From NCBI GenBank assembly GCA_036263355.1, contig DATAHE010000283.1:1-28410 (forward strand): a stretch of 28,410 bases of DNA, given 5' to 3'. Below the pieces are notes generated by a model. That model saw nothing but the letters and a program-made list of their open reading frames with translations. It did no database searches and was not told where the DNA came from. Shown one piece after another: positions 1,702-19,945 of this stretch. Positions within the stretch are counted from its first letter, which is position 1, and every line of letters starts with the position of its first letter. A program made the position numbers and the translations under genes. The stretch is from Steroidobacteraceae bacterium (GTDB taxonomy: Bacteria > Pseudomonadota > Gammaproteobacteria > Steroidobacterales > Steroidobacteraceae).

Positions 1702-2678
1702 TGTGTGCGCTCTTGAGAAGTTGGAAAGGAACGAAAGGCCTTAATAAACGCCATCGCAGATTTCGGACGTCGTCCATCAGATAATTTGCCGTCGTAATCT
1801 TTCGCTTTGTAATCCCAGTAAGCGTGATAGGCGACATTGTGCTGTCTTATCCATTCGGCCATGTTGTTGACGAAGTAATCATCGTCGTCACCACCGTGAC
1901 CATCGGGCCGCGTGCCGGTAGCCCATTCAGGAATTGAAATGGGCTTGTCGTGCCGAGTGGCAAAGTCACTTAGCCAGTTAAGGCCATAAGCTTGTGTGAC
2001 CAGTTGATGCCAGCGTTCTTCGGGCGTGGGTTGTTGCTTCAGCCATATCTGGTTGTAGAAGTCATAGCCGATCACATCTACATATTCATCACCGGGATAA
2101 ACGTTCGGTGCAGGTATCTGTTGATAGCCCTGCGCCACACACCAGTCGAACAGGAACGCTGCACCGGGAACCGACTTCATTGTGGTGACAATGCGTCGCC
2201 AGTACTTCACCCAGTTCTCCGGATCTTTCTTTGCAGCCCACGGATACCAGCCGCCATTAAATTCCCAGCCAAGACGAATTACGGAATGGGCGAATCCATT
2301 CTTGATCAAGGTTTCTGCAAGCTGACGAAACTGATCATCGAACTTTCCTGATGCTCCTTCGGCCAGTGTGCCGTGATCATTCATTAGCATGGGCACGGAG
2401 AACACCACTTCAATCGGCTGATGTGACCAGCATTTGCTGGCCCAGTTGGCATCGCCCTGCATCGATTGCCATGAATCAGAGGCGATAAAGTCCAGCACAA
2501 AATCCGGGCGACGACCCAGCCAGTTCGAAAAATTACCCATGCGCTTAACACCGTCACAGCCATTGCCCTGATAGGTGCCAAGCATGGCAACAAAGGATGA
2601 TGGCGTTGAAGATGGCTGTGCGGCCGCGGCGCCGATACAAAGAAACACAGCCGAAAAGAAATGTAACGCGCGATTCAT
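1698..2678 (-). CDS. Secreted glycoside hydrolase family 26 (beta-mannanase/beta-glucanase-like)
   Basis: Signal peptide (MNRALHFFSAVFLCIGAAAAQ). GH26 motifs IRLGWEFNGGWYPW (acid/base Glu), YPGDEYVDVIGYDFYN and KPISIPEW (nucleophile Glu). ATGA overlap with the acyltransferase stop, with a GGAGG RBS. Confidence 0.9.
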   Translation of the reverse strand: MNRALHFFSAVFLCIGAAAAQPSSTPSSFVAMLGTYQGNGCDGVKRMGNFSNWLGRRPDFVLDFIASDSWQSMQGDANWASKCWSHQPIEVVFSVPMLMNDHGTLAEGASGKFDDQFRQLAETLIKNGFAHSVIRLGWEFNGGWYPWAAKKDPENWVKYWRRIVTTMKSVPGAAFLFDWCVAQGYQQIPAPNVYPGDEYVDVIGYDFYNQIWLKQQPTPEERWHQLVTQAYGLNWLSDFATRHDKPISIPEWATGTRPDGHGGDDDDYFVNNMAEWIRQHNVAYHAYWDYKAKDYDGKLSDGRRPKSAMAFIKAFRSFPTSQERTQ

Positions 2679-3997
2679 ATGCGACCCTCCTGTCCAACAA
2701 CCATGGCGGGTGATATTGAGGATGATGATGAGGCTGGTGTTGCAGGTAATGCCGTCTCACTGCGTGCAGAGTGATCGACGGATAGCCAGCCCTTCAATTG
2801 CTTCGCCAGTCTTTGTTCTATCCATCGATACGATGCAGTTGAAATCAATACCGCCAGTGTGAATGAGGCCACGGCAAACACGATGGCGGAAACAAACCAT
2901 CCAGCATGTGGCACCAGCCAATTTGTTACGGGCTTCTTGACAGCAAACATCACGATGGGATGCCACAAATAAAAGCTGTAACTGATATTGCCGAGCAACT
3001 GCATTGACGCCTGCTTCAAACCACGCGCCATGCCAATGCCATTGCATACGCATATAAACAGGTGCAGTCCCGACAAGAATGCCAATGTCGCCCATGCAAG
3101 TCCGGGCCATGACAACACATGCGCGATAGCAGTAGTCGTGGGTCTGGCTTCATCCAGATTCACTGCGCGCCATGCGAGCAAGAACAACAGCAGACTGATC
3201 AGTGGATATTGCAACAGCGGTGATTGCAACCAGCGCGATTCTTTAATTGACTGCCAATTAAGTGCAACGATGACGCCCGGTATGAAGAACAGCGCACGCG
3301 GCAGCAACATCAGTAGACCCACAATGATCACTGCCATTACGATCATTGATGCTGGCAGCATGATTGATGCTTTCATCGTGGCATTCACCTTCCGGACCAG
3401 CAGCGCATAGCTTGCTGCTGCCAGTAAATAAAACAACCACTCATAAGTCAGTGACCACGATGCAGGATGCAACACTGGAATTGGCACCAATGGCGGCAGC
3501 AGTAACAGATTGCTGATGAATACCGAGAACTTGTCCGTCAGCGTAGTGCTGGCAAAGTACTTCCAGCCCAATGCAACGCCCAGCGAAAAGATGCACAAGT
3601 GCACCGGAACCCACACTGGAAAGATGCGGATGCAGCGGTCCTTGAGAAAGGCAGCAATGGTTTTATGCCGACGCAGGCTATTGATAATGACGAAGCCGCT
3701 GATCATGAAGAACAGCTCGACACCATATCGCCATGAACTGGCGAAGAATAAAAAGGCGTCCTTGCCGGGCGCTGGCGTTGCCGAAACGGGTATCAGTCCG
3801 GAGTTAATGACGTGATAGGCAAATACCAGCAGCACACACAAACCACGAAAACCGTTGATATAGAAGTTGAAACCACTCTTGGCAGCCGTCACAGATGCAG
3901 CCGGTGATGCGGATTGCGCAGGCAATACATCGCGAATGTCCGGTGCCCTGACCATCTCTGTGACAATACTTCCAGTTGTGAAGTGGTCGCGTGCCAT
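2675..3997 (-). CDS. Acyltransferase family 3 (OafA-like), probable EPS O-acylation
   Basis: Motifs INGFRGLCVLLVFAYH, GVELFFMISGF, WSLTYEWLFY and GNISYSFYLWH, with many hydrophobic segments. Start moved from the track's 4090 (inside the GT2 gene) to ATG 3997, just after the GT2 stop. Confidence 0.9.
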   Translation of the reverse strand: MARDHFTTGSIVTEMVRAPDIRDVLPAQSASPAASVTAAKSGFNFYINGFRGLCVLLVFAYHVINSGLIPVSATPAPGKDAFLFFASSWRYGVELFFMISGFVIINSLRRHKTIAAFLKDRCIRIFPVWVPVHLCIFSLGVALGWKYFASTTLTDKFSVFISNLLLLPPLVPIPVLHPASWSLTYEWLFYLLAAASYALLVRKVNATMKASIMLPASMIVMAVIIVGLLMLLPRALFFIPGVIVALNWQSIKESRWLQSPLLQYPLISLLLFLLAWRAVNLDEARPTTTAIAHVLSWPGLAWATLAFLSGLHLFICVCNGIGMARGLKQASMQLLGNISYSFYLWHPIVMFAVKKPVTNWLVPHAGWFVSAIVFAVASFTLAVLISTASYRWIEQRLAKQLKGWLSVDHSARSETALPATPASSSSSISPAMVVGQEGRI

Positions 3998-4001
3998 GTC
4001 G

Positions 4002-5165
4002 TCATCCCTGGCCGCGAATCGACGCTGACGGTTGCCATGTCTGGTAGCGTTGTCCACGCACGGATTGCCACACACCAATGCCCGCACCACCCAGGCTGCG
4101 TATCACTTCAACAACAGAAGTGAGTGGCCCTGCGGACCAGCGCAGACCAATGTAGAAGCACAGTGCCGTTACTAATGGCAGGATCAGCGCCAACAATGGC
4201 CATTGCGCAAACAGCAGTGCGATTTCAAACAGGCAGGCGCTCAGCACCAGGAAGTAAATGCTCAGCCAACGTAGCAGCTTGTGCGACACATACTTATAGA
4301 TAGTGAGTGCATTCAGCTCACGAATCGCTGGCCATAGAATGCGGTGCACGTTGAAGGCCTGACATGCAATGCGGATCTTGCGACGAAATTCCTCCATGCC
4401 ATTGCTGACTGATTCCTCATACGCGCGGACATCATTCGCTTGCACTACACGATAACCCTGACACAGAATCATGAACGACACATACATGTCATCGATGATG
4501 TGATCGGGTGGTGGCTGATGCAATTCGCGACGGATCGCAAACAACGAGCCATCCGCACCCATCACCGATCCACTGGCTTGCTCAAGTGATTTGATGGCTT
4601 GCTCCAGCCGCCAGTACAACGAACCGGTTGCCGCTGTCACTGAATCATCGCCATTGGTATAAATCAGGTCGCCGCACACACAGCCAATGCTGGGATGGGC
4701 GAAGTAGTTGCGTAGCTTTTGCAGCCCTTCGATATCCAGTCGCACGTTGGCATCGGTGAACACGATGTACGGTGCAGTAGTCTGCGACACCAGCAGATTC
4801 ATGCCATGCGTTTTGCCGTGACGTACTGGTGACACATGCAGCTTGATCTGCGATGCAAACGGCGCAAGTAATTCCGCAGTGCGATCACTTGCGGCATCAA
4901 CATACACCAGAATTTCCAGATCGGGTTCCTGCTGACGCATGGCAAGCAGATTGAGCATCTTGGCCTTGATCACATGTTCTTCGTTATAAGCACACATGCA
5001 AATCGCAAAACGTCCAGTTGCTGGCTCCACTTTCATGTGCGACTTTCCGGGTCGTCGAATGACATTGAACACCTTCAGCGACAATGGATAGGTGATGAAA
5101 GGATGCAGCGCGATGAGCAAACAAAGCCCGCTGAATATAAATAGAACGTTGGCGATGAGGGTCAT
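4002..5165 (-). CDS. Glycosyltransferase family 2 (membrane-anchored, CesA/IcaA-like fold)
   Basis: Motifs ICMCAYNEE, VYVDAASDRT, RHGKTHGMN, VFTDAN, GADGSLFAIRR, DDMY and RRKIRIA. Start at ATG 5165 (ATGA overlap with the wzy stop, GGAGG RBS) rather than the track's 5282. Confidence 0.9.
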   Translation of the reverse strand: MTLIANVLFIFSGLCLLIALHPFITYPLSLKVFNVIRRPGKSHMKVEPATGRFAICMCAYNEEHVIKAKMLNLLAMRQQEPDLEILVYVDAASDRTAELLAPFASQIKLHVSPVRHGKTHGMNLLVSQTTAPYIVFTDANVRLDIEGLQKLRNYFAHPSIGCVCGDLIYTNGDDSVTAATGSLYWRLEQAIKSLEQASGSVMGADGSLFAIRRELHQPPPDHIIDDMYVSFMILCQGYRVVQANDVRAYEESVSNGMEEFRRKIRIACQAFNVHRILWPAIRELNALTIYKYVSHKLLRWLSIYFLVLSACLFEIALLFAQWPLLALILPLVTALCFYIGLRWSAGPLTSVVEVIRSLGGAGIGVWQSVRGQRYQTWQPSASIRGQG

Positions 5166-6487
5166 CGTGCCTCCCGGAGTGTCAATAGACTTTCTAATGG
5201 ATCGTGTGGAATCGCAGCAGGCGCTGCGTTGGTGGAGATAACTTTGTTCTGCGTGGCGAAGGACTTTGGTCGCGATGTCCATACCAGCAAGCTCAACGAC
5301 AGCGCATGGGAAAATGGCACATACAATCCGTTCAACAGAAAGGTGAGTGCGACGGCAAGCGCCACGGCCGATGGCAGCGCAGATGAAGAGAGGCAGTAGA
5401 ACAGGAACGAGAAGTACAGCAGCGCACCCGCGATGCCGAACTCCAGCACCATTTTGAATAGCGGCATTTCGGCCACTGGATAGTGAGCCAGCGGCGCATA
5501 TTCCTTGAACATGCCAGCACCAGCACCAAACAATGCGCGTATGGGATGATCCGAAAGAAACTGGTTGAACAGATAGAAACCGCCGACGAAGCGGGCGAAA
5601 CCACTGGAGCCGGTTGAATTGAATTCACCAATTCGTGAAATAAATTTATCGAGATAGAGATACTCTCCCGCGAACTGCACCAGGATCACTGCAACGATGG
5701 CTGCGATGATCATGCCGAATAACAGACCCCAGCGATTTTGCGCAACGATGACAACCGGCAGTGCAATGCCCAGTACCATGAAGCCAGTGCCTGAATACGA
5801 CACCAGCATGCCAGTGATGTACAGCATGATTCGCCACACGCGATTTAATGTGGATACTTCCAGCACGAGGGCCACTGCGAGTAGCTGACTAAGATAAGAA
5901 GGTTCCAGCATAAACACGCCATTGGCGCGCATTACGGCGGATTCATATTCGAGCGGTGCTTCCTGATTGAAGTTCTGAATGCGAAATCCGTCTGGAATAA
6001 AACTCTCAATCGGAAATAGCCACGGACTGGAGATAAAGTGTTGCAAGACGAATTGAACAATCGCGAGCAAAGCACACAGGCTGCACAGCACGTTGAAAAA
6101 CTTCACCACCTTGTTGATGTCTGCTGACCCCACCCGGAACTGCAACAGCAGTGGCAAGTGCAGCGCGGCCAGTAACAGGATCGAGCTGGAATAGAACATA
6201 TCGTTCTTCAGTAACTGCACAAGCGTAAGCAGGCCAATGGTTAACAGGCCAAATGCAAACCGCCGCGTTTCAATGACGAATTGGCAGGTGATGCAACCTG
6301 CGATCATCACTACCAGTAATATGGGCAGCGCGATGCCAATGCCACGTGAACCAAAGGGCGGCACCGCGATCTTTGAGAATACCGTCGCAGTCAGCAGTGG
6401 CATCGCCCACAGCAAGTTGCGCCACGCAGAAGCTGGTGGAGTATCGTGAGGAGTTGCCGCAACCAATGTACGAGCGGCGGAGGTCAT
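5162..6487 (-). CDS. Wzy-like polysaccharide polymerase (multi-TM)
   Basis: About 10-12 hydrophobic segments, periplasmic-loop motif RANGVFMLEPSY, 'SYSGTG' and 'SGFARF'. The operon position fits. ATGA overlap with the epsL stop gives start 6487. Confidence 0.7.
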   Translation of the reverse strand: MTSAARTLVAATPHDTPPASAWRNLLWAMPLLTATVFSKIAVPPFGSRGIGIALPILLVVMIAGCITCQFVIETRRFAFGLLTIGLLTLVQLLKNDMFYSSSILLLAALHLPLLLQFRVGSADINKVVKFFNVLCSLCALLAIVQFVLQHFISSPWLFPIESFIPDGFRIQNFNQEAPLEYESAVMRANGVFMLEPSYLSQLLAVALVLEVSTLNRVWRIMLYITGMLVSYSGTGFMVLGIALPVVIVAQNRWGLLFGMIIAAIVAVILVQFAGEYLYLDKFISRIGEFNSTGSSGFARFVGGFYLFNQFLSDHPIRALFGAGAGMFKEYAPLAHYPVAEMPLFKMVLEFGIAGALLYFSFLFYCLSSSALPSAVALAVALTFLLNGLYVPFSHALSLSLLVWTSRPKSFATQNKVISTNAAPAAIPHDPLESLLTLREAR

Positions 6488-7773
6488 AAGAAGCTCCACC
6501 TGATTTGCAACGCCGTCATCTCATCCAGATAACTGTATGCATCAATGCTCGAGTCGCGCTTCTCATAGCCATAGTTCAAATTAATATCGAAAGAAGGGCG
6601 TGGCCGAAACAGCAATTCAACGCCAGCCAGCTTCACTTCGTCTTCACGTGGCAACAGACCTGCGGTGGCAATGTTGCGGAAAATATATTGCTGACGTTCC
6701 CAGCGCAGTGGCAAAGATAATGTGATCTTCTCATGCGGCATCCAGCGTGGTGTCAGGCTCGCGCCCCGCGAGATGAAGTGATCTGCTTCAGTATCAAAGT
6801 ACGAAGCGAGGTCCTTCCAGCCGGCGACGGTGAACTGGATGTTGCCGCGTGGTTGCCAGTCCAGTGAAGCACGCCACGTATATCCGGAATAATTGATTGA
6901 CGGATCGTGTTCATAATCGTGTTTCACATGCGATACCGCAGCAGCAAAGATCGTCTTGCTGCCTAGCTCGTAGTGCGCGCGGGCCGATACCGTTTCCTCT
7001 CGATAGTCACGATCAAAGACGGTGTCGTTAATAACCACGGTGAATGGGTAGTTGGCCTGCACGCGTTGTGCACTGAACCCCAGATAGTTTTCAGCGCGAC
7101 TCATCAGAAGAATCTCGGCGACGCCCGTGGTATTTCGATAATTATCGACGCGACGTGATTCGGCATCATGCGAGGTATCAGTACGGTCACCACGCACTCT
7201 TGCAACCACATGCGCACCGAAGTCGCGATTCACTTCCAGAAAGTAGTGGTACGAGTCCACCACATCTTTCACCAGCGGGCGATCATTGACGAAGGTGCCG
7301 AGTGCGCGCTTATAGTCGCCGCCTGCCTGACCATGCCAATTCTTGGCAACCTGCCAGTTCCATAGCAACGCCGCGTTGCCAGAAACATGATTCAGGATTT
7401 TGTTATCCAGAAAGCGGTTGTCATCAATGTTTGCGGTCAGCTTGAATTCCTGTGGATTCAGCTGCCAGCGTTCCTGAATGCATGCCGTGGTGCGTAACGA
7501 CGTGTTGTACCGACTGGCATCCGGACCGAGTCGTTGCGTGACGTCCATATCGCGATTCAGGTGAAATAAATTGGTGTGATAGATGGCCTGTTCAGCAAGA
7601 CAGACGAATGATCGCTCTGTTACCGGCTCTTCTTCGGTTTCCGCGTGGACCGTTGTACTGATGAGCGGAATGCTGATGGTGCATGCCATCGCGATGCAGG
7701 AGGAAAAAGTCCATGCATGCGATTTAGAGTTAACTGTTGTTTGCCTTGGCGGAGTGCTGTTCACATCAACCAT
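6484..7773 (-). CDS. epsL: EpsL-type outer-membrane beta-barrel for polysaccharide export
   Basis: Signal-like N-terminus (ISIPLISTTVHAE), alternating aromatic/polar beta-strands ('YSGYTWRASLDWQP', 'LNYGYEKRDS') and aromatic C-terminus (IRWSFL). Lies next to epsE/F/G. The exact start is uncertain. Confidence 0.7.
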   Translation of the reverse strand: MVDVNSTPPRQTTVNSKSHAWTFSSCIAMACTISIPLISTTVHAETEEEPVTERSFVCLAEQAIYHTNLFHLNRDMDVTQRLGPDASRYNTSLRTTACIQERWQLNPQEFKLTANIDDNRFLDNKILNHVSGNAALLWNWQVAKNWHGQAGGDYKRALGTFVNDRPLVKDVVDSYHYFLEVNRDFGAHVVARVRGDRTDTSHDAESRRVDNYRNTTGVAEILLMSRAENYLGFSAQRVQANYPFTVVINDTVFDRDYREETVSARAHYELGSKTIFAAAVSHVKHDYEHDPSINYSGYTWRASLDWQPRGNIQFTVAGWKDLASYFDTEADHFISRGASLTPRWMPHEKITLSLPLRWERQQYIFRNIATAGLLPREDEVKLAGVELLFRPRPSFDINLNYGYEKRDSSIDAYSYLDEMTALQIRWSFL

Positions 7774-8644
7774 CCAGTACTACACCGAGTAGTTCAGTTC
7801 TGGTTGTAGAAAGCAGTTCGGCAGCCAGCTCCACATCAGCAGTAGGGGTTATGTTGCGACGTGCGCTCAGAATGCAGCCATGAGTACGTGATGCAACGAC
7901 TTGTGCATCCGCGCAGTCGGCCAGCGGCGGCGCCACCACAATCGCAGTATCAAATGCTTTCTGCACCGAATCGAACAGATAGCGCAAAGTCGTCAGACTC
8001 AACAGCTCCTGCGGATTCACTGGTGGCTTGCCAGCAAAAATAACCGAGAGGTGATAGAAGCCCGGAATGGAATGCAACAGGTCCTGCGGATTGCAGTAGC
8101 CTTTCAAAAAATCCACTAAGCCACGCTGACCTTCCATCTTGAACATGCCCTGTTGTTGTGGTGTGCGCAAATTTGCATCGATCAACAAGGTGCGTCGCCC
8201 CAGTTGCGAGAAAGCGCAGGCCAGATCCGCAGCAAGCACATTGGCTCCATCGTCATGACGTACTTCAGTCACCATCAATATCTGGTGATTACGCGCGAAG
8301 CAACGCGACATCAATTCGCTGCGCAGTGAGCGAATGGCTTCGGCGCGTGCGCTTTTGGGTCGGTGCACCATTGAAAGTGCAGATGAAAAAATCTTGTTGT
8401 TAGACAGGTTGGCAGCCAGCTCGCATTGAACCGCGAGTGCGCGTCGCACTTCCAGTTCAGTAATCAGTCCGAGTCGCAGTGCGACATCACTGAAGCATTC
8501 GCCTTTCTCATTCTGTGCAGCCTGGATGCGCTTGAAGTCCTGCTCACTCAATGTGCCTTCGTCATACAGGATTTCGCCCAGGCGGGTATCGAGGTGCGGT
8601 GGAATCTCAACTGCTTTAAGGTTGGTGTCTGGGGCAATCGCCAT
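7766..8644 (-). CDS. epsG: EpsG-family Wzc C-terminal (BY-kinase-like) subunit with degenerate Walker motifs and an N-terminal MshEN-like domain
   Basis: 'AEAIRSLRSEL', 'LAADLACAFSQLGRRTLLIDANLR', 'PPVNPQELL' and 'LLGVVL' match the CpsD/CapB/EpsG fold. Follows epsF, with a GGAG RBS. Confidence 0.85.
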   Translation of the reverse strand: MAIAPDTNLKAVEIPPHLDTRLGEILYDEGTLSEQDFKRIQAAQNEKGECFSDVALRLGLITELEVRRALAVQCELAANLSNNKIFSSALSMVHRPKSARAEAIRSLRSELMSRCFARNHQILMVTEVRHDDGANVLAADLACAFSQLGRRTLLIDANLRTPQQQGMFKMEGQRGLVDFLKGYCNPQDLLHSIPGFYHLSVIFAGKPPVNPQELLSLTTLRYLFDSVQKAFDTAIVVAPPLADCADAQVVASRTHGCILSARRNITPTADVELAAELLSTTRTELLGVVLDG

Positions 8645-8671: not shown

Positions 8672-10069
8672 TTACGAAGGGCGTCTCGCAGGAATACGAC
8701 GTCCCGCAAATCGATCAGATGGAATCTCGGCAAGCAATGGACCAAAGCTGTTGCCTTCAAGATCAAGTTCGGTGTGGATGCGCGGATGCAACGTCTCCGT
8801 AAAGATGCATATCGCTGCGGCCAGCAAGGGCGCAATGAATATCGCCAGTATCATGTTCAGCACTAATCGTGGCGATGAAGGTTGTTCCGGAACTGCCGCT
8901 CGATCCAGCACGGCAATGTTGCTGTGCTCCAGCTGGCTTTGCAGTCTGGTCTGACCGCTGCGCTGTAACGCTGCATCATAGGCAGTGCGTGCACTGTCGA
9001 CTTCGCGCTTCAGTACGGCATATTCATCCTGCTGTGCCTTCAGTGACAGAATGCGTTCGCGCTGCTGCTCAACGGCACGTTGCAGTGATGCGGCTTGCTG
9101 GCGTGAAATGCTGGCTTCGCGTGAGATGGTGGCGCGCGCATTCTGCATTTCCTGATCAACCTTTTTTTGGATCGCGGCAAGCTCTGCTGCGGCGCTCATG
9201 TATTGCGGATGATTGCGATCAAAGCGCTGCGACACATCAGCAAACTTGGCTTCGGCACGTGCAAGTTCCGTCTTCAGGCTTTGCATCAAAGGGTTCTTGA
9301 ACAGATCCGACATTTCATCAGGTCGTTGCAATGAATTGGCCTGATCCATCTGCGTAGAGCGTGCATTGCTGGCATACATCGCCGACTGCGCTGCTACCAG
9401 TTGATTGGATAATTCTTCCAGCCGCGCATTCTCTACATCCAGTCGCGCATCGTCAGTGCCAATCAAGCCATGATCTGACTGATACGCAGAAAGCTTTTGT
9501 TGTGCTTTCTCCAGCGTGCTGCGTAATTCTTCTGACTGTTTATCAAACGACGCCAGCTGCCCGCGCATCGGGCTTACTTTCAACTCAACACTGGTCTGCA
9601 CGTAAGCGTCTGCAAATCCATTGGCGATTTTCGCGGCACGAGTTGGGCTGGTGTCAGGATACTGAATGTAAATAACATTGCCATTGTGTGATGAACGCAC
9701 ACTTAGCTTGTCGAGCAATACATCAGCAATGGCGTCGTCGATGGCGGCGGGGGAGACGGCCTTTAATTTGGCAGTGAAGAAAGGATCTTCCTTCAGCTTA
9801 AGATCGCGCACGACTTTCAGTGCCACATTGCGACTGCCAATCACATCCATCTGTGTCGCAACAAAAGCCGATTGCATCTGCTGGGGGACATTGGCGGTGT
9901 TGGTGTATGGGTCAGTGGTACTGACATCGGCAATGACGGCCGCTTCGCCCAGATATTTTTTTGGCAGCAACAAGCTTGCGGCCAGCGCCAGTATCAGCAC
10001 CGAGCAGAAGATGGAGAAGAACATTCTTCTACGCGCCACCAGAATGCGAACTAACTGTGCAAGGGTCAC
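8672..10069 (-). CDS. epsF: EpsF chain-length determinant / polysaccharide co-polymerase (GumC/Wzz-like)
   Basis: Two TM segments flank a long coiled coil. Motifs LPKKYLGEA, 'SQRFDRNHPQY' and 'NIAVLDRAAVPEQPSSPR'. GTG start at 10069 with AGAGGA RBS, giving MTLAQLVRIL. Confidence 0.9.
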   Translation of the reverse strand: MTLAQLVRILVARRRMFFSIFCSVLILALAASLLLPKKYLGEAAVIADVSTTDPYTNTANVPQQMQSAFVATQMDVIGSRNVALKVVRDLKLKEDPFFTAKLKAVSPAAIDDAIADVLLDKLSVRSSHNGNVIYIQYPDTSPTRAAKIANGFADAYVQTSVELKVSPMRGQLASFDKQSEELRSTLEKAQQKLSAYQSDHGLIGTDDARLDVENARLEELSNQLVAAQSAMYASNARSTQMDQANSLQRPDEMSDLFKNPLMQSLKTELARAEAKFADVSQRFDRNHPQYMSAAAELAAIQKKVDQEMQNARATISREASISRQQAASLQRAVEQQRERILSLKAQQDEYAVLKREVDSARTAYDAALQRSGQTRLQSQLEHSNIAVLDRAAVPEQPSSPRLVLNMILAIFIAPLLAAAICIFTETLHPRIHTELDLEGNSFGPLLAEIPSDRFAGRRIPARRPS

Positions 10070-10090
10070 AAGGAATTCCTCTTTATAAAT

Positions 10091-10158
10091 ATCAACACTC
10101 ATCACCAAAATCATCACCGCATCAACATCACATCAGCACCGGAGCGGAGGGCGGTGCT
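10091..10158 (-). other. Intercistronic hairpin followed by a TGAT-rich tract between epsE and epsF
   Basis: 7-bp stem AGCACCG/CGGTGCT (10135-10158) and 7 ATCA (sense TGAT) units in 10091-10135. Confidence 0.4.
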
Positions 10159-10171
10159 TCAAATCAGATCG

Positions 10172-10990
10172 TCAGAACAGGCTTTCTTTAATCAGCAGTA
10201 CATCGTCAGGTTTCAAAACATCCGTGCTCTTCACGCGCTGCTGATGTTCGTTGCCACTGGAATCGCGACGCTTTAACTTGGCGCCGCGTTCCGTGCCGTG
10301 TTTAGTCAGACCACCGCCGGCTGCGATGGCTTGTGATACCGTCATGTTGCGACCCAGACGATAGACGCCGGGATGTTGTACTTCGCCATAAATATAGAAT
10401 TGCGCTGCACGTGCCACGGACAGAGTGTCGCCACTGTGTACCTCAAGATTCATGCGCAGATCGCCATCTGACAGCTTCTGCAAATCGACGGGTTGCACGT
10501 TACCGTTGGCGCGAATCAACGTGGCCTGGTCTGCTGCGGAGTCCGGCAAGACGCCACCGGCCAGTGCGAGCACATCCAATACTTTCTGCGTACCAATCAG
10601 GGGATATTGACCGGGCTTGCCCACCTGACCAATCACGCTGACCTTCTGACTTTGAAAGTCGCCAACCAGAATGGATACCTGTGCTTTCCTGATGAAGCTG
10701 CCTTCAGTCAACTTCGCAGCAATCATCTCCTCTGCTTCATGAGTAGAGAGGCCTTCGACGTGCACCACACCAATCAGTGGATAAGTGATGTTGCCGGATT
10801 GGCTGACACGCGCATCCAGTGCGAGCTCGGGATGATCGAATACAGTGATGTGCAATAAGTCGCTAGCGCCCAGCTGATAATCAGCAGCCTGAACACAGAG
10901 CGACAGTAACGCGCCAATCAACGTGAGTACCGTTGTGAACACGGAAACAGCATTACCACGTTCAGAATTATTAGAAGTCCTAGTAAGCAT
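10172..10990 (-). CDS. epsE: EpsE polysaccharide export protein (short OPX/Wza-like; Poly_export plus two SLBB domains)
   Basis: 'DYQLGASDLLHITVFDHPEL', 'GNITYPLIGVVHVEGLS', 'VSVIGQVGKPGQY' and 'YIYGEVQHPG'. ATG 10990 with AAGGA RBS. Ends ...KESLF with no Wza C-terminal helix. Confidence 0.9.
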   Translation of the reverse strand: MLTRTSNNSERGNAVSVFTTVLTLIGALLSLCVQAADYQLGASDLLHITVFDHPELALDARVSQSGNITYPLIGVVHVEGLSTHEAEEMIAAKLTEGSFIRKAQVSILVGDFQSQKVSVIGQVGKPGQYPLIGTQKVLDVLALAGGVLPDSAADQATLIRANGNVQPVDLQKLSDGDLRMNLEVHSGDTLSVARAAQFYIYGEVQHPGVYRLGRNMTVSQAIAAGGGLTKHGTERGAKLKRRDSSGNEHQQRVKSTDVLKPDDVLLIKESLF

Positions 10991-12470
10991 GGGTGTCCTT
11001 GAATACAACTGCGACAGTCTGAAACAGAATTTTTATGTCGAACCACAATGACCAGTTGCACAGATATTTAAGATCGAACTCAATGCGCTTGGTCATCGTC
11101 ACCAGATCATCGCCGCCACGATAGCCATTCACCTGGGCCCAGCCCGTGATACCGGGTTTGACTTTGTGACGAATCATGTAGCTTGGAATCTGTTCGCGAT
11201 AACGTTCATTCACTGCGACAGCATGGGGACGTGGACCCACCATACTCATCGAACCGCCCAGCACATTCAAAAGCTGTGGCAATTCATCAAGCGAAGTACG
11301 ACGGATGAAAGCGCCGAACGGCGTGACACGACTATCGTTGCGCGTCACCTGCTTGTATTGATTGTCGCCATCTTCAGTGACCGACATGGAGCGAAATTTT
11401 CTGACCATGATTTCGCGACCATCCAGTCCATAGCGTCGTTGCTTGAATATGACGGGACCTGGTGAACTGAGTTTCACACCCAGCGCTACCATCAGGAACA
11501 AGGGCATCGTAATTGTTAGTGCTGTTAGTGATAGAACGATGTCACTGCAACGCTTCACCAGTCCGCCAACACCATAGAAGGGTGATTCGCAGATGGCGAT
11601 CAAAGGAATGCCACATAGCATTTCAACGCGCGCACCAATCAGATCAAAGGCACCGAGATCAGGAACGAAGTAAACAGAGGCCACTGAGTCCTGCAGTTCT
11701 TCCAGGAGATGCATCAATGCCGGATTGCGTGACAGTGGAAAGGTGATGTAGACAAGTTGAATGTTGTGCTTGCGTACATATGCGGCGATATCGGTCGTCG
11801 AACCGAGGCGTGCCAAGGAATGAAATGACCCCGGCGCCGCAGGGGTACTGCTGTCTTCGTCAATCTGGTTTCCAGAGGCGTCACCGGAGCGGCCGAAATG
11901 ACCATCGAAATAGCCCACACAGTTGATCATGAGTGAAGGCTGCGCTTCCAGCATCTGGCTGAGTAGTGCACCTTGTTCAGTTGCCCCCACAATCACTGCT
12001 GATCGTGCTGCCATGCGCCTGATGCTGACACCAAATAATGGCATGCATATTCCCGCTCGCACGGCAAACAATACAAAGGGTGTGAGCAGCACCCATGCGA
12101 TAAACGGTGCCTCTGCTACGTAGTGCCCCGTGCCCGATAAATACATCAGCAAACAGATGCCAATGCATATGACGCACCAGCGACTGAAAACATAGTTGAA
12201 TGATTTCAGTGTGAACGCGCCAAGGCCATCGAATGCAAATTTTGAAAAGTCGACAAGCTCTGCAACGGCGGTAAAGCCGATCACCGCAATCAGAAAGTAC
12301 GGTCCGAGTAATGGTTGATGCCACCACTGTAGACAGACCAGTAACACCAAGACAGTTGTAACGGGATATACCAGCGATTGAATGGCAATCATCAACGCAG
12401 AATTTCGCGAAGCCGCTTCCATTGGCAGCGACCCTGCGGTCTGCAATGCCGTGAATGAGTCATTGCGCAC
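10980..12470 (-). CDS. epsB: Undecaprenyl-phosphate glucose phosphotransferase (EpsB/WcaJ/GumD family priming transferase)
   Basis: Bac_transf motifs 'KRCSDIVLS', 'GPVIFKQRRYG', 'KFRSM', 'RRTSLDELPQL', 'GPRPH', 'KPGITGWAQVNGYRG' and 'DLKYLCNWSLWFD'. GTG start with GAGG RBS. Confidence 0.95.
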   Translation of the reverse strand: MRNDSFTALQTAGSLPMEAASRNSALMIAIQSLVYPVTTVLVLLVCLQWWHQPLLGPYFLIAVIGFTAVAELVDFSKFAFDGLGAFTLKSFNYVFSRWCVICIGICLLMYLSGTGHYVAEAPFIAWVLLTPFVLFAVRAGICMPLFGVSIRRMAARSAVIVGATEQGALLSQMLEAQPSLMINCVGYFDGHFGRSGDASGNQIDEDSSTPAAPGSFHSLARLGSTTDIAAYVRKHNIQLVYITFPLSRNPALMHLLEELQDSVASVYFVPDLGAFDLIGARVEMLCGIPLIAICESPFYGVGGLVKRCSDIVLSLTALTITMPLFLMVALGVKLSSPGPVIFKQRRYGLDGREIMVRKFRSMSVTEDGDNQYKQVTRNDSRVTPFGAFIRRTSLDELPQLLNVLGGSMSMVGPRPHAVAVNERYREQIPSYMIRHKVKPGITGWAQVNGYRGGDDLVTMTKRIEFDLKYLCNWSLWFDIKILFQTVAVVFKDTHAY

Positions 12471-14856: not shown

Positions 14857-15102
14857 GGTTGGAAATCAGCTGCGTGTGATGTTGCGGTTTGCGCAACGTC
14901 TTGTGCTCGTCACCTTGATAACTGTAGACAACATCAATCAATTTCGCTGCAAGCACCTATTGCAAAGCGGCAACGACGAAGCATACTATCGGCCGTCACC
15001 TCACACATTCGTAATAAAGCAGCGTGTTGTTGCCTATGCTATTCTCGCGCTTGACTAATTATTTTGTCCTACAAGCTTGATCCACAGGTGATTATCTTGA
15101 AC

Positions 15103-15516
15103 ATGGAAAACGCTGCCAGTAAGACTGCCGCCTCTGTCATTAAATCTGTTCTGGTAGTTGAAGACGAACCAGTCACTTTAATGTATCTGTCCGACACGCT
15201 GCAGGAACTGGGGTTCAACGTCACGCAAGCCAATAATGCCACCGAAGCCATTCATGCTGCTTCGGATTGCCCCGGGTTGTCAGTTGCTTTTGTTGATCTT
15301 GGACTGCCTGACCTTAGCGGACTGGAATTGATTTCCGAACTGCGCAAGATGCAACCAGGATTAAACATCGTTATTGCATCCGGCTACGGCGAAATGGCCA
15401 AACGCGATCTGGACAATGCGGAAGACACCGACAATTTCACTGTCCTCACCAAGCCATACAATCAGGAAACCATCACTGAAATTCTCAGTGACCTTGGCGT
15501 GCTCGGTAACAACTAA
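15103..15516 (+). CDS. Single-domain response regulator (CheY-like receiver)
   Basis: VLVVEDE, AFVDLGLPDLSG (phospho-Asp), IASGY and LTKPY, with no output domain. ATG 15103 preferred over TTG 15064. Confidence 0.9.
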   Translation: MENAASKTAASVIKSVLVVEDEPVTLMYLSDTLQELGFNVTQANNATEAIHAASDCPGLSVAFVDLGLPDLSGLELISELRKMQPGLNIVIASGYGEMAKRDLDNAEDTDNFTVLTKPYNQETITEILSDLGVLGNN

Positions 15517-15563
15517 CGCTATTTTTATTCACCGTCGCTCCTTGTGTTATCGGACCGCTTGAA

Positions 15564-16955
15564 CTACAACCAGTAATTAATCAGGCGACTTGCTGACTCC
15601 TTCAGCTTTTCTCCCGCCGATCTCCGACGCCAGGTGTTGATGTCAATCTCCTTGCTTTGTTGCAGATCGGATAAATAGATTTCCTGCATGCGCGTGCCGA
15701 GCGATTCACTGACGATAATGGCAGTCACTTCATTGTTATGAAGAAAGCTGCGGTAGTCGAAGTTCGCTGAACCGATAATCGATACACTGCCATCGATGAC
15801 AGCGGTTTTGGCATGAAGTAATGCATCGGTGACTTCATACAGCCGCACGCCATGTTTCAGCAATGGCTCGTAACCCCCACGTGCTGCATAGAACACAATG
15901 CTGGAGTCTGTGAAGCTGGGGACCAATACGCGGACATCGACACCACGCGATACCGCAGCAATCAACGCATCGCGTAGTTCCGGCGGTGGTGAAAAGTAAG
16001 CCTGCGTAATCCACACCTGCTTTGACGCATGCTGAATTGCAGCAAGATAAGTGCTGTAAATGGGCTCTTTACGCTGCTTGACGCCAGTGCTGGCAACAGC
16101 AGATACAATATCGGCGCCAGCATTTTCCAGCGGTGGATAGTCGATATCTTTACTGTCATTCATTTCGCCATCCAGCGCCGCCCAGGTCTCAAAGAAGATC
16201 ATCTGGAACAGGCGAACGGCAGGACCTTCTATTTGCGCATCTGTATCACGCCAACCTTCGTTGATGCCACGCTCTGGTCCGGGATGTAACGAGGACTTCG
16301 ATGCATAGGTGCCACTGATGTTAAGGCCGCCAGTGAAGGCGATCTTGCCATCGACAATGAGCAGCTTGCGATGATCACGATTATTGAATTTCCAGAATGC
16401 CACGCTATGAAACGACAGCGGATTGAACTCCTTGACCAGCACACCGGCGTTGCGCATTTCATCGAATAGCGCATCCGATGAGGTCAGGCTGCCGATGGCG
16501 TCGAAGATCACACGGACACGCACGCCAGCACGGGCCTTGCTGATTAGTAGTGATGCGAAGTCTCGACCCAGTTTGTCATCAGAGAAAATATAGGTTTCAA
16601 CATTCACGCTGCGCGTTGCGCCTGCGATGGCGCGACGCAGATGCGCAAACGTATCCGGTCCATCCACCAGCGGTGTGACCTTGTTGCCAACCACCAGCGG
16701 TGAGTTGGTCTTTGCGCGCACGGCATCTACCAGTTGCTCAAGCTCATGACTGTGTGGAGACGCTGGATTGCCCGCAGCTTGAATGATTTCGCTGGATTTC
16801 TTTTCACTGAGCGCGCGTCCGCCCGCTACCACTGGAGCAACTTCTGCTTGGTGCTCCGGTCGATGATCAGAGAGCGTAGACAGGTCGGTGCAGGACCAAA
16901 GCGGGACGGCGATGCAACAGAGAATCAGGTGGTTTAAGAATCTATTTTTGCGCAT
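15564..16955 (-). CDS. cls: Cardiolipin synthase-like phospholipase D (ClsB/YbhO-like) with a possible lipoprotein signal
   Basis: Two HKD motifs (RDHRKLLIVDG, LLHAKTAVIDG), 'AFTGGLNI', 'WRDT', 'ITQAYFSP' and 'IGSANFDYRS'. N-terminus MRKNRFLNHLILCCIAVPLWSC. Confidence 0.9.
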   Translation of the reverse strand: MRKNRFLNHLILCCIAVPLWSCTDLSTLSDHRPEHQAEVAPVVAGGRALSEKKSSEIIQAAGNPASPHSHELEQLVDAVRAKTNSPLVVGNKVTPLVDGPDTFAHLRRAIAGATRSVNVETYIFSDDKLGRDFASLLISKARAGVRVRVIFDAIGSLTSSDALFDEMRNAGVLVKEFNPLSFHSVAFWKFNNRDHRKLLIVDGKIAFTGGLNISGTYASKSSLHPGPERGINEGWRDTDAQIEGPAVRLFQMIFFETWAALDGEMNDSKDIDYPPLENAGADIVSAVASTGVKQRKEPIYSTYLAAIQHASKQVWITQAYFSPPPELRDALIAAVSRGVDVRVLVPSFTDSSIVFYAARGGYEPLLKHGVRLYEVTDALLHAKTAVIDGSVSIIGSANFDYRSFLHNNEVTAIIVSESLGTRMQEIYLSDLQQSKEIDINTWRRRSAGEKLKESASRLINYWL

Positions 16956-17149
16956 GGTTATTCATTTGCGTTCGTCTTCAGCGTCCCAGACGCAAGAATT
17001 CATTAGCGCGACGTGTCTGCAATGTCAGTGCTGCACTAAACAGCATGTGAGGAAGTGATGACGTAAGGGTGCAGATAACGGCCTGGTTTTAAGTAATGCA
17101 CCGCTTATTCCGCTATCCCGGGAAACACCAAGAGTACTAATTTACAATC

Positions 17150-17167
17150 TGTAAGAATCATCCTACA
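17150..17167. promoter_or_regulatory. Best GacA/RcsB-like box, in the cls / response-regulator divergent promoter
   Basis: TGTAAG-AATCAT-CCTACA, one mismatch to TGTAAG-N6-CTTACA. The inner TAAGAATCATCCTA is 12/14 identical to the RcsAB box TAAGAATATTCCTA. A weaker copy, TATAAG-ATGTGG-CCTGCG, lies at 17173-17190. Confidence 0.65.
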
Positions 17168-17354
17168 GTTATTATAAGATGTGGCCTGCGTAAACATTGG
17201 GCCGCGCAACGAACACTATCGGACGTGACCAAAGTGGTTATTTTCCTTGTCAGACTTATGCTGGCAAGTTGGCGCAAGTCATCAGGGAAAAATCTTGACG
17301 CTTGTAAGCCGCGGATCGGCCAACTAATCAGTTATTCAAAAACGGTAATTCAAA

Positions 17355-17987
17355 ATGCCCAAGATACTCATAGCAGATGATCATGCAGTTGTCAGAAAAG
17401 GCTTCAAGCAACTGCTGATGGAAGATCGCGCCCAGTTCGAAGTGGGTGAAGCGTGTACAGGTCGCGAAACACTGGATCGACTGCGCGAACAGAAATGGGA
17501 CCTGCTGGTGCTTGACATCAACATGCCTGATCGCAGTGGTATTGATATCCTGCGGCAGATACATGCTGCCTATCCTGGCATGCGTGTGCTAATTCTCAGC
17601 GCATTTCCGGAGAGACAATATGCAGTCAATGTGCTGCGCTCAGGCGCGAATGGATATCTGAACAAGGAAATGGCGCCTGAAGAGTTGCTGACAGCGGTCA
17701 AGACGGTACTGAGTGGCCGACGCTATGTCAGCGTTGCGCTTGCTGAGTTGCTGGTCACCGAGCTGGACAACGACAGCGAGAAACCAGCACATATGCAATT
17801 GTCGGAACGCGAATTCCAGATCTTCTGCAAGCTGGCAAGCGGCACATCGGTTTCCGCCATTGGTGCGGAGCTGTGTTTGTCAGTGAAGACAATCAGCACC
17901 TATCGCTCAAGACTGATGGAGAAGATGGGCTTCAAAAGCAATGCTGACATCACGGCGTATGCGTTACGCAATCAATTGATCAATTAA
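17355..17987 (+). CDS. NarL/LuxR-family DNA-binding response regulator (UvrY/GacA-like)
   Basis: 'ILIADDHAVVRKG', 'VLDINMPDRSG', 'GANGYLNK' and HTH 'LSEREFQIF...LSVKTISTYRSRLMEKMG'. Confidence 0.95.
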   Translation: MPKILIADDHAVVRKGFKQLLMEDRAQFEVGEACTGRETLDRLREQKWDLLVLDINMPDRSGIDILRQIHAAYPGMRVLILSAFPERQYAVNVLRSGANGYLNKEMAPEELLTAVKTVLSGRRYVSVALAELLVTELDNDSEKPAHMQLSEREFQIFCKLASGTSVSAIGAELCLSVKTISTYRSRLMEKMGFKSNADITAYALRNQLIN

Positions 17988-18099
17988 TCAATTGTCCAGT
18001 TTGATCGTCTGAACTTGGGGTGTGGTGTAAACTGCGGCATCTAATCTAGTGTCGTATTGTGATAACAACAGGAGTGCGCTCGGCAGCGTTACCAATTTG

Positions 18100-18483
18100 A
18101 TGCGTGAGCTTAAGGTACTGTTAGTCGAAGACTCTCCGTTACTTTCGGACCGTATGATGGAATTGCTTTCCGAGATGGAAGGCATTGTATCCGTGGGCGC
18201 AGTCAGCACCGAGTCTGCAGCCATCAATGCCGTCGATACGCAACAACCAGATGTGGTGCTGCTGGATTTGCGACTGAAGGAAGGCACAGGCTTTAGCGTG
18301 ATGCGGCACCTCAAGCATGTCAGTAAGCAGCCTGTGGTGATTGTGATCACCAACTATGCGTTGCCACAGTATCGTCGTGAAGCGGAAGCGCTGGGCGCCC
18401 GTTTTTTTCTCGACAAGAGCCAGGAATTCGATTTGATTCCCGCGATGCTGGCAACGTTACAGATAGAGCAGACCGCACGCTGA
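18100..18483 (+). CDS. Single-domain response regulator (receiver)
   Basis: 'KVLLVEDS', 'VVLLDLRLKEGTG', 'VITNY' and 'FFLDKS'. The start could be 18049 (GTG) or 18100 (ATG). Confidence 0.88.
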   Translation: MRELKVLLVEDSPLLSDRMMELLSEMEGIVSVGAVSTESAAINAVDTQQPDVVLLDLRLKEGTGFSVMRHLKHVSKQPVVIVITNYALPQYRREAEALGARFFLDKSQEFDLIPAMLATLQIEQTAR

Positions 18484-18571
18484 ATAAGCGCCGTCGAAGG
18501 CAAGGCTTTACTGCGTCTGATTGTGCGTGTTCGCGACAGCGCGTGAAGCTGGCAACAATTCCGTAACTGCG

Positions 18572-19945
18572 TTACTCCAGCGTTGCCAATTGATTGGCCA
18601 AGTCTGTTCCCAGCCATACGATTACGCGCGTGCCATGCGGAAAGACAGAGATGATCTGGAAGGTACCGCCAATGGTCTGCATACGGTACTTCATGCTCAG
18701 TAATCCGTGTGAACCACTGGCGCGTCGCGTCGTATTCTCAAAGCCAACGCCGTCGTCTTCAATCGTTAACACCAGCTCTTGATTGGTACCTTTCAAACTG
18801 ACTTTAACGGTTGTAGCGCGCGCGTGCTTGACGATGTTGGTCATTGTCTCCTGCGCCACACGGAAGATGGCAATCGCAATATTCAAATCAACTTTCAGTT
18901 CTTCCTCTGGAAAATCTGCTTCAAGTACGAGATTGGCCTGTGCACAGGTTTCTTCACATTGCCATCTGATGGCAGCGACCAGTCCCAGGTTATCGAGCAG
19001 GGTGGGACGCAATTCTTCAATGACGCGGCGTTTCAATTCAACGCCGGCACTCAATGCAGTCTGAATACGTTGCCAGCGCACCTGGATATCGGGTGCACTG
19101 AAATCAAATTTCTTGGCAAGCTGTGAAAGATCCATCTTCATAGCGACCAGCAGGCCGCCGAGTTCATCATGCAGTTCTCTGGCAAGTCGCAGCTTTTCAT
19201 CTTCGCGCACACTCAGCATGTGCTTGGAAAGATTCGTTAACTCTGCAGTGCGCTCTTCCACCATGCTATTCAGTTTCATTGCCGCAGCGTTGCGTCGTTC
19301 AATTTCCCAGATGACCAGCAGGCCGATTGCCAGCAATAAAAGGATATTCAGCAGCGTCGTTCCGCCTGCCACATACCGGTTTACCTTGACTTGCAATTGC
19401 CAGAAATCAATATCGCTAAAGACACGTTGGCGTTCCCGTGAGCGCATACTTTCAAACGTCGCGCGTATCTCTTCCATCCAGTGCAAATCAAGACGGGTTT
19501 TCACCTGGCGTAATGCTTCAGCGTCGCCGGCTACACGTTGCGCTTCTTCAATTCCGCTTTGCATTTCTGCAAATTTGCTGTCGATGTTGTTCCTTGCCTT
19601 GTTCAGATACGCCAGTTCGTCATTTTCGATTTTTCCATACTGCGATATCAGCGTGTTCAGTGTTTTATTGGCGCGGCTTTTCGCTTCATTGAAGGTCACC
19701 AGAAAACCGGGATCAAGTGTCAGCAAAAATCCACGCTGCGCACTTTCTGCATCGGCAACGGCATAAATCATTTCGGCAAGTTCGCGCAGTCTTTCCTGAC
19801 GACCACGAATGCCTGCGGCCAGCTCCACAGTGTAAGAGCGGCGATATTCAATAACGCCATAGCCAATCAACACCAGGGTAATGGCCGTCAGCACAGCAAT
19901 AACCACGTAGCGCCGGTTAAAGCCGGGGAATAGAAAATTAACCAT
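18572..19945 (-). CDS. Membrane sensor histidine kinase, CHASE3 + HisKA_3 + HATPase_c
   Basis: Two TM segments flank the CHASE3-like 'VADAESAQRGFLLT'. H-box 'RLARELHDELGG', 'ELRPTLLDNLGL', N-box 'QETMTNIVKHARA', 'IEDDGVGF' and 'HGLLSMKYR'. Confidence 0.93.
   Translation of the reverse strand: MVNFLFPGFNRRYVVIAVLTAITLVLIGYGVIEYRRSYTVELAAGIRGRQERLRELAEMIYAVADAESAQRGFLLTLDPGFLVTFNEAKSRANKTLNTLISQYGKIENDELAYLNKARNNIDSKFAEMQSGIEEAQRVAGDAEALRQVKTRLDLHWMEEIRATFESMRSRERQRVFSDIDFWQLQVKVNRYVAGGTTLLNILLLLAIGLLVIWEIERRNAAAMKLNSMVEERTAELTNLSKHMLSVREDEKLRLARELHDELGGLLVAMKMDLSQLAKKFDFSAPDIQVRWQRIQTALSAGVELKRRVIEELRPTLLDNLGLVAAIRWQCEETCAQANLVLEADFPEEELKVDLNIAIAIFRVAQETMTNIVKHARATTVKVSLKGTNQELVLTIEDDGVGFENTTRRASGSHGLLSMKYRMQTIGGTFQIISVFPHGTRVIVWLGTDLANQLATLE

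Follow-up and report, generated by a model that had tools for sequence, protein, structure and literature searches.

The question raised by this locus is whether an exopolysaccharide (EPS) assembly system can sense cyclic di-GMP (c-di-GMP) directly, through the cytoplasmic partner of its membrane co-polymerase. The locus lies on a 28,410-nucleotide stretch of a Steroidobacteraceae bacterium contig (DATAHE010000283.1), which at its full length is called the window here. A preliminary description of this DNA had pointed to an MshEN-like motif pair at the N-terminus of the EpsG protein and proposed that the EPS exporter is possibly gated by c-di-GMP. The protein in question has 292 residues and is encoded by the open reading frame at 7766-8644 (minus strand), and it joins an N-terminal MshEN_N domain to a P-loop domain resembling bacterial tyrosine kinases (BY-kinases). 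Taken together, sequence comparisons and structure models make a solid case for homology between the EpsG N-terminus and that subdomain of MshE and PilF which binds c-di-GMP. As to the ligand, we lean towards a reading in which this copy and the small clade around it carry an MshEN_N-type bundle with little or no c-di-GMP binding in the manner of MshE, and direct c-di-GMP gating by the window EpsG is doubtful.

Family searches placed the protein with TIGR03029 (EpsG) by a wide margin, the alignment covering positions 2-272 of 274 at 236.8 bits, which is under the equivalog cut-off of 313.8 bits; TIGR01007 also matched, over its own cut-off, at 114.4 bits. By these scores EpsG of this window is a divergent member or a sister clade of the TIGR03029 family. 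The gene has a GAGGAG Shine-Dalgarno sequence 6 nt 5' of its ATG, and the ATG stands 27 nt past the epsF stop. The motif pair was found exactly at the coordinates first given for it, 8426-8584, corresponding to residues 21-73 (codons 8582-8584 and 8426-8428 for the first and last residue), with the strings RLGEILYDEGTLSEQDFKRIQAAQ, NEKGE and CFSDVALRLGLITELEVRRALAVQ all present. The residue count of the preliminary description was likewise correct, with repeat 1 keeping R1, L2, G3, L6, G10 and Q24 and repeat 2 keeping G10-L-I, L21 and Q24 while reading CFS for RLG; L12 and F17 of motif I and V17 of motif II can be added to the retained positions. What that count overlooked is that position 21 of repeat 1, where Leu is expected, is Gln and not hydrophobic (Q41, CAG at 8522-8524). 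Within motif II, C50 (TGC, 8495-8497) occupies position 1, where a guanine-stacking Arg is expected, and S52 (AGT, 8489-8491) occupies position 3, where a near-invariant Gly is expected. The register of 24-residue motif, 5-residue linker and 24-residue motif is identical to that of residues 9-61 in the MshE structure 5HTL.

Profile searches and predicted folds both connect this region to MshE. The NCBIfam model NF053729 ('cyclic di-GMP-binding domain-containing protein, MshE-related'; 53 positions, curated cut-off 38 bits) aligned from its first to its last position with EpsG residues 21-73 when the whole protein was searched (E 1.7e-8, 34.1 bits), and its score was 37.3 bits for residues 12-88 and, in a six-frame search, 37.2 bits, both values being below 38. 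Despite these sub-cut-off scores, all alignments of the window EpsG ran end to end, with E-values of 1e-8 to 1e-9. Across the 3.18-Mb assembly the six-frame search returned two places only, namely the window epsG and a 606-residue open frame on another contig (C613, locus L001; match at 2561-2716, minus strand, 71.2 bits), which is presumed to be a MshE/PilB-type ATPase and the canonical MshEN receptor of this genome. The window N-domain alone reached VcMshE (5HTL) at E 1.4e-4, and a profile made from 77-residue N-terminal segments of 131 EpsG relatives reached the same structure at E 3.5e-13 and Thermus thermophilus PilF at E 1.8e-29. An AlphaFold2 (AF2) model of the whole protein (mean predicted local distance difference test score, pLDDT, 91.6) has four helices at residues 16-28, 34-47, 51-57/58 and 63-75 or beyond. 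For a separate model of residues 12-88 (pLDDT 83.3) the best fold match in the PDB was 5HTL_B, with a root-mean-square deviation (rmsd) of 1.0 A over 55 columns and 33% identity, and ranks 1-12 were all MshE or PilF GSPII domains, mostly in complex with c-di-GMP and mostly at 1.0-2.4 A. The motif pair noted at the outset belongs to a genuine MshEN_N-type domain by profile, by modelled fold and by its conservation through the family.

That conservation is wide, and the fusion itself had been seen before. NF053729 matched 130 of the 131 EpsG relatives at E <= 1e-3, and the columns G23, L26, G30, Q44, F51, G52, A55, L58, L70 and Q73 are at least 90% conserved across the family. A phmmer search against 1.84 billion cluster representatives gave 196 clusters at E <= 1e-30, with the same length and the double motif in most of the best 150 of the 196. 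Whether the fusion had already been reported for EpsG was left undecided in the preliminary description; it is not new, having been catalogued bioinformatically in 2016 by Wang et al., whose Supplementary Table 4 lists a 'MshEN_N - AAA_31' architecture with Methylobacillus sp. EpsG (BAC55137) in beta- and gamma-proteobacteria and whose supplement includes Mfla_2024 in an alignment (PMC5013675). EpsG is absent from the proteins in that study with a dissociation constant (KD) measured by isothermal titration calorimetry (Supplementary Table 6; PMC5013675). The literature searched, which left most subscription journals outside, yielded no experimental c-di-GMP-binding test of EpsG or of any BY-kinase-like protein. 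The window EpsG is a divergent member of this known family. The closest genome representatives searched in the same genus and family are 52-53% identical to it, and a whole-protein search of genome contigs returned only distant BY-kinases (27% identity) in Pantoea and in one metagenome-assembled genome (MAG) of the Flavobacteriaceae.

Three positions that touch the ligand in MshE have diverged in this copy. When aligned to 5HTL (VcMshE residue first, EpsG residue second), the kept or conservatively changed positions include R9=R21, L10=L22, G11=G23, G18=G30, L25=F37, Q32=Q44, L39=F51, G47=G59, L54=V66, L58=L70 and Q61=Q73, and the non-conservative ones are L29=Q41, R38=C50 and G40=S52. We compared the clade of the window protein (P0001-P0011, that is, the window copy as P0001 and about 10 metagenome or MAG sequences, at 62-87% identity to it) with 109 relatives of intermediate identity (45-53%) and with 149 diverse representatives. 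Position 1 of motif II is Cys in all 11 clade members and Arg in 97 of the 109 and 97 of the 149 others, Cys not being among the commonest residues tallied at this position in the 258 non-clade relatives. At position 3 of the same motif, 10 of the 11 clade sequences carry Ser, and 99/109 and 137/149 of the comparison sequences carry Gly; position 21 of motif I is Gln in 8 of 11 and hydrophobic elsewhere. The closest outgroup sequences (P0012, P0013, P0019, P0021-23 and P0027) read RFS, which is consistent with a stepwise change from RFG through RFS to CFS, an order read from an unrooted comparison of these sequence states.

Applying published motif rules to the window copy gives a mixed picture. 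The four glycines used by Wang et al. as a filter (VcMshE G11, G18, G40 and G47) correspond to G23, G30, S52 and G59, so that the protein fails the filter, and each motif half carries two mismatches to their relaxed 24-mer. For position 1 (Arg, or Lys, Pro or Asn in the relaxed motif), R21 of motif I passes and C50 of motif II fails. The position-24 glutamines, which make hydrogen bonds to ribose and phosphate, are present in both motifs (Q44 and Q73). The hydrophobic triad L10/L54/L58 is intact as L22, V66 and L70, and the other triad, L25/L29/L39, has become F37, Q41 and F51 with one polar member. Scores of NF053729 on isolated N-domains follow the same changes: the window copy (37.3 bits) and two other CFS members of the clade (28.2 and 37.7 bits) lie at the lower end, a CFG member of the clade reached 41.5 bits and the RFG or RFS relatives 42.2-47.4 bits. 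Within the CFS clade motif I contacts also vary (G23A in P0007, R21S in P0009, L22V in P0005 and L22P in P0011), and motif II is almost invariant.

There is a second cysteine, C74 (8423-8425, minus strand). It follows motif II immediately, in the string QCEL, and is conserved in the lineage as well as in the RFS and RFG relatives P0012-P0027, making Cys74 older than Cys50. The two cysteines flank helices 3-4, and to regard the Cys50-Cys74 pair as a redox site is speculation.

Experiments on related domains give these replacements their weight. The guanines bound in VcMshEN have Arg side chains stacked on them and a Leu triad packed against each, and their O6 and N7 are read by the amides of the position-3 Gly and of the residue after it (PMC5013675). 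The VcMshEN variants G11L and G40I were not stabilised by c-di-GMP, G40I abolishing binding, and among the changes listed for the Xanthomonas protein XpsE, which does not bind, are L29R, R38G and G40L (PMC5013675). The GSPII-A domain of T. thermophilus PilF, also a non-binder, has Ser (S39) and Ala (A41) at positions 1 and 3 of motif II; recovery of binding required restoring both positions, and in the engineered PilF9-65, returning Gly to Ala at position 3 raised the KD about 10-fold to 19 uM, with the additional return of Arg to Ser at position 1 abolishing binding (PMC12002112). Since the window EpsG has replaced the Arg and Gly positions at which the tested substitutions reduce or abolish binding, it is most likely a weak binder or a non-binder by the MshE mode, and we give only a modest chance to its binding c-di-GMP at a physiologically useful affinity. 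Binding by PilF also depends on context beyond the motif (PMC12002112), so a reading of the motif may err in either direction and is not decisive.

The second half of the protein has lost its catalytic motifs. Its kinase-like domain matched Wzc (3LA6) with an rmsd of 1.2 A over 203 columns and 27% identity; Etk and CapB matched too, and for 3CIO and 4JLV the E-values were about 1e-16. The Walker A region reads EVRHDDGANV and is without GK[ST], Walker A' reads LLIDANLR with the second Asp of the DxD replaced by Asn, and Walker B reads AIVVAPP and is without its Asp. The last 20 residues, ending in TELLGVVLDG, contain no Tyr, and a C-terminal Tyr cluster is absent. With neither a Walker A GK[ST], a Walker B Asp, the second Walker A' Asp nor a Tyr cluster, the domain looks dead and, judged by these criteria, the protein should not be called a tyrosine kinase. 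The same holds more broadly, Walker A GK[ST] being missing in 143 of 151 EpsG family representatives and a Tyr tail being present in none of those listed, and 'tyrosine autokinase' is probably a wrong label for its members. What is kept is an ExxRxxR stretch (E102, R105 and R108, each at least 90% conserved in the family), which we take to be the ring-formation interface known in BY-kinases from the CapAB and Wzc structures.

Two further proteins of this type are encoded in the same genome. One is a canonical BY-kinase (L005, contig C512, 1234-2112, plus strand; 292 residues) with GDGKT, a C-terminal QYY and no MshEN_N domain. The other is a second EpsG-like paralogue (L004, contig C617, 953-1888, minus strand; 311 residues) whose Walker A reads GDGRS and whose helical N-terminus shows no recognisable RLG...Q motifs; it adjoins its own EpsF-like gene.

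These features suggest a mechanism in which EpsG, a cytoplasmic protein resembling BY-kinases, partners the inner-membrane co-polymerase EpsF and, across the family, would form a ring beneath it as a BY-kinase does. No autophosphorylation cycle would be possible in such a ring. [quoted passage not shown] In the window EpsG and the clade nearest to it (62% identity or more) the canonical c-di-GMP site would be impaired and the switch weakened, lost or re-tuned. The domain is under strong purifying selection all the same and still has some function, which may be to support or oligomerise the EpsF/EpsG complex, to dock a protein partner, or to bind an altered ligand.

Several points weigh against our leaning towards weak or absent binding. 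Of the VcMshE residues compared, 13 of 16 are kept or conservatively changed, including both Gln, R21, G23, both turn glycines and the L22/V66/L70 triad. The Ile, Leu and Ala tested at the Gly position are larger than the Ser found there, the precedents at the Arg position do not include Cys, and binding by PilF hinges on context outside the motif (PMC12002112). The shortfall against the NF053729 cut-off is just 0.7 bits for the isolated N-domain and 3.9 bits for the whole protein. The near-invariant motif II of the clade could equally fit a site that is still in use, and what we say about binding, for the family as for this copy, is in both cases a prediction.

The alternative that survives best is the one originally proposed, namely direct c-di-GMP binding by EpsG via its two motifs at physiological levels, by which it would gate chain-length control and export. 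The end-to-end profile match and the MshE fold speak for it, as do the retention of both Gln, the first RLG, both turn glycines and most hydrophobic contacts, and the very strong constraint on the domain in the clade, above all on motif II. It would also suit a genome richly equipped for c-di-GMP signalling (30 GGDEF matches, and PilZ matches numbering at least 6) and a kinase domain that is dead and so needs another input. Against this stand C50, S52 and Q41 at the positions of R38, G40 and L29, where replacement of the Arg or Gly weakens or abolishes binding in MshE, PilF and XpsE; an NF053729 score under the cut-off where RFG and RFS relatives score over it; further drift at contacts within the clade, with G23A in P0007 and R21S in P0009; and an operon whose interior and flanks are without GGDEF, EAL or PilZ genes. 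Because of the residues at these contact positions the proposal of direct sensing was not supported for this copy, and we judge it unlikely, if still a serious contender.

Less probable is a degenerate MshEN_N domain repurposed for protein docking or for sensing something else, such as a nucleotide or, via Cys50, redox state, with c-di-GMP input indirect or absent. One argument for it is the selection on the domain. Between the window gene and two clade members whose DNA could be compared (L007, 4394-5269; L008, 1267-2145), the ratio of non-synonymous to synonymous substitution rates (dN/dS) was 0.03-0.05 for N-domain residues 16-76, 0.07-0.13 across the kinase-like domain and 0.29-0.45 in the linker between the domains, these being values from three sequences with synonymous sites near saturation in one pair. 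On these ratios the N-domain is under strong purifying selection, not decaying, and still functional in some way, although its canonical ligand contacts have been replaced. The presence of Cys50 in 11/11 clade members, set against its absence from the commonest residues tallied in the 258 others, fits this idea too, and the fold can be a protein-binding surface, the complexes of the PilB N-terminal domain with PilZ (7LKM, 7LKN and 7LKO) being among the fold matches. The N-domain of Xanthomonas citri PilB, a non-binder of c-di-GMP that docks PilZ, is a precedent for a docking role of the EpsG N-domain. However, no candidate partner gene (PilZ or similar) was found in the operon or window, no evidence for another ligand was found, and a purely structural role in the EpsF/EpsG ring also explains the conservation, which makes the repurposing improbable in our view. 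We hold it more improbable still, yet worth stating, that the CFS clade has re-tuned a constrained MshEN_N domain to a new input (a nucleotide, thiol or redox chemistry via Cys50, or a protein partner) and has not simply lost its c-di-GMP site; were this so, the clade would hold a second, c-di-GMP-independent switch for a dead-kinase co-polymerase ring.

A chance resemblance between MshEN and a generic helical N-terminal extension unrelated to MshE, for which one might cite the lack of any T2SSE_N/MshEN match in a Pfam scan of the whole EpsG protein (in which P-loop matches were sub-threshold only) and the weak Foldseek E-values of the 77-residue model (0.03 and worse, owing to the small domain), is effectively refuted by the full-length NF053729 match, by the family profile against both PDB structures, by the confinement of that match to two places in the six-frame genome, by the twelve best fold matches and by the 130 of 131 relatives that share it.

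The surroundings of epsG are those of an EPS operon, with all genes from 12470 down to 379 on the minus strand (Table 1). EpsF is the presumed partner of EpsG, and epsL follows directly downstream of epsG with an 8-nt overlap. The 445-residue hydrophobic open reading frame, whose position is conserved in relatives (437-443 residues), is likely a membrane protein and a Wzy-type polymerase; its true start is probably further downstream, the listed one overlapping the next gene by about 120 nt. Beyond it lie a GT2 glycosyltransferase, an acyltransferase_3 protein, a 326-residue open reading frame and a GT4 glycosyltransferase. The gene order priming glycosyltransferase-EpsE-EpsF-EpsG-EpsL recurs around the closest relatives. 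By its gene content the locus is a system of the Wzx/Wzy type in which co-polymerase (EpsF) and kinase-like partner (EpsG) are split, in keeping with the operon type first assigned to it and with epsG adjoining the co-polymerase gene epsF. EpsE and EpsL might form a composite translocon of outer-membrane polysaccharide export (OPX) protein and beta-barrel, as proposed for other systems.

The GGDEF cyclase that the preliminary description had noted in the same window is indeed there, as a gene fragment that the contig end truncates, some 19 kb away from epsG; it carries no evidential weight for c-di-GMP input to EpsG. The 3.18-Mb assembly contains 30 GGDEF matches, a density at which finding one within 28 kb is no surprise, and we rejected a linkage between this gene and the operon on the grounds of its distance, its truncation and its being 1 of 30. 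The interval between it and epsG includes genes for a short-chain dehydrogenase/reductase (SDR), a phospholipase D (PLD)-type enzyme, a CHASE3 histidine kinase accompanied by a LuxR-type regulator, and a ferritin-like protein. No PilZ match was found on the contig of the window, no EAL domain among the larger open reading frames of the window, and no GGDEF, EAL or PilZ gene in or beside the EPS operon. A signalling cluster at 15064-19945 is unrelated to the operon; its members are included in the table.

Table 1. Features of the window, with coordinates and the basis for each assignment (ORF, open reading frame; PCP, polysaccharide co-polymerase).
Feature	Coordinates	Strand	Basis
epsG	7766-8644	-	ORF translation; TIGR03029 EpsG 236.8 bits; TIGR01007 114.4 bits; AF2 pLDDT 91.6
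MshEN_N-type double motif, residues 21-73 (53 residues), helices 1-4 of a four-helix bundle	8426-8584	-	NF053729; 5HTL_B fold match
Motif I RLGEILYDEGTLSEQDFKRIQAAQ, residues 21-44	8513-8584	-	alignment to 5HTL
Linker NEKGE, residues 45-49 (5 residues)	8498-8512	-	translation
Motif II CFSDVALRLGLITELEVRRALAVQ, residues 50-73	8426-8497	-	alignment, codon reading
BY-kinase-like P-loop domain, residues 99-292	7769-8350	-	fold match to Wzc 3LA6; degenerate motifs
Priming undecaprenyl-phosphate glucose phosphotransferase (WcaJ-like), first operon gene	10980-12470	-	TIGR03023 462.6 bits, over cut-off
epsE, short OPX-type polysaccharide export protein, 278 residues	10172-11008	-	TIGR03028 261.2 bits
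epsF, membrane co-polymerase (PCP, GNVR-type)	8672-10117	-	TIGR03017 407.7 bits (cut-off 422.75); synteny in relatives
epsL, EPS outer-membrane protein, 429 residues	6484-7773	-	TIGR03014 187.8 bits
445-residue hydrophobic ORF, candidate Wzy	5162-6499	-	no Pfam or NCBIfam match
GGDEF domain, C-terminal portion of a gene that the contig end truncates	28019-28405	-	PF00990 129.9 bits, profile positions 34-160
Stand-alone receiver domain	15064-15516		
PLD-family enzyme	15564-16955		
LuxR-type response regulator	17355-17987		
CHASE3 histidine kinase	18572-19945		

Direct c-di-GMP control of EPS production is best documented for synthase-type systems (BcsA, Alg44, PgaCD, PelD and NfrB). If the family-level idea is true, a Wzx/Wzy machine would be controlled post-translationally by c-di-GMP via a kinase-dead, Wzc-like ring. 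To that idea the window contributes a caution, namely that an intact site is not universal in EpsG. The CFS clade looks like a naturally occurring variant of the site at the Arg and Gly positions whose importance mutagenesis of MshE and PilF has shown, with the Leu29 position, changed in the non-binder XpsE, altered as well, and CFS-type EpsG offers a ready-made comparison for RFG-type EpsG, which is the better subject for the family hypothesis. For annotation, 'tyrosine autokinase' is a misnomer for the window epsG.

With the kinase domains of CapB (Staphylococcus aureus) and of Wzc and Etk (Escherichia coli), EpsG shares its fold (rmsd 1.2-1.8 A, 27% identity), and like the PCP-2b BY-kinases it is a separate cytoplasmic protein encoded directly after the membrane co-polymerase. 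It differs from CapB, Wzc and Etk in having no Walker A GK[ST], Walker B Asp or C-terminal Tyr cluster and in the Asn of its Walker A'. Methylobacillus sp. EpsG has the same two-domain architecture, and Methylobacillus-type EpsG has the same operon partners (EpsE, EpsF, EpsL and a priming glycosyltransferase). The motif pair is present in the family and in the window copy alike, and the P-loop Lys and the Tyr tail are missing in most members. Against that background the window protein stands apart by CFS in place of RFG in motif II, by Gln at position 21 of motif I and by the additional loss of the Walker B Asp (AIVVAPP against VIVDTPP), changes that it has in common only with a small metagenomic clade.

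VcMshE (5HTL) and the GSPII-B and GSPII-C domains of T. thermophilus PilF have the same four-helix bundle as EpsG, with two 24-residue motifs and a 5-residue linker. EpsG lacks the MshEN_C (T2SSE_N1) subdomain of MshE, and its N-domain is fused to a Wzc-type P-loop domain, whereas in MshE and PilF the fusion is to a T2SSE-type one. The non-binders PilF GSPII-A, the XpsE N-domain and the X. citri PilB N-domain also have this fold, and replacements at positions 1 and 3 of motif II are common to EpsG, PilF GSPII-A (S39 and A41) and XpsE (R38G and G40L). Unlike PilF GSPII-A, which has H33 and R62 there, EpsG keeps both terminal Gln, and unlike the listed non-binders it has no C-terminal subdomain to occlude the site. 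Helix 1 of PilF GSPII-A is over-extended; the AF2 model of EpsG is one of the apo form. Among EPS machines, a parallel is NfrB of E. coli, which like EpsG has an MshEN-type receptor domain and whose model gave weak matches, via the N-domain, in 41 of the 131 EpsG relatives. NfrB is a synthase-type, MshEN-gated glycosyltransferase for which c-di-GMP control has been demonstrated (PMC8669469); EpsG, unlike it, belongs to a Wzx/Wzy-type pathway and has no glycosyltransferase domain, and for it c-di-GMP control is a prediction.

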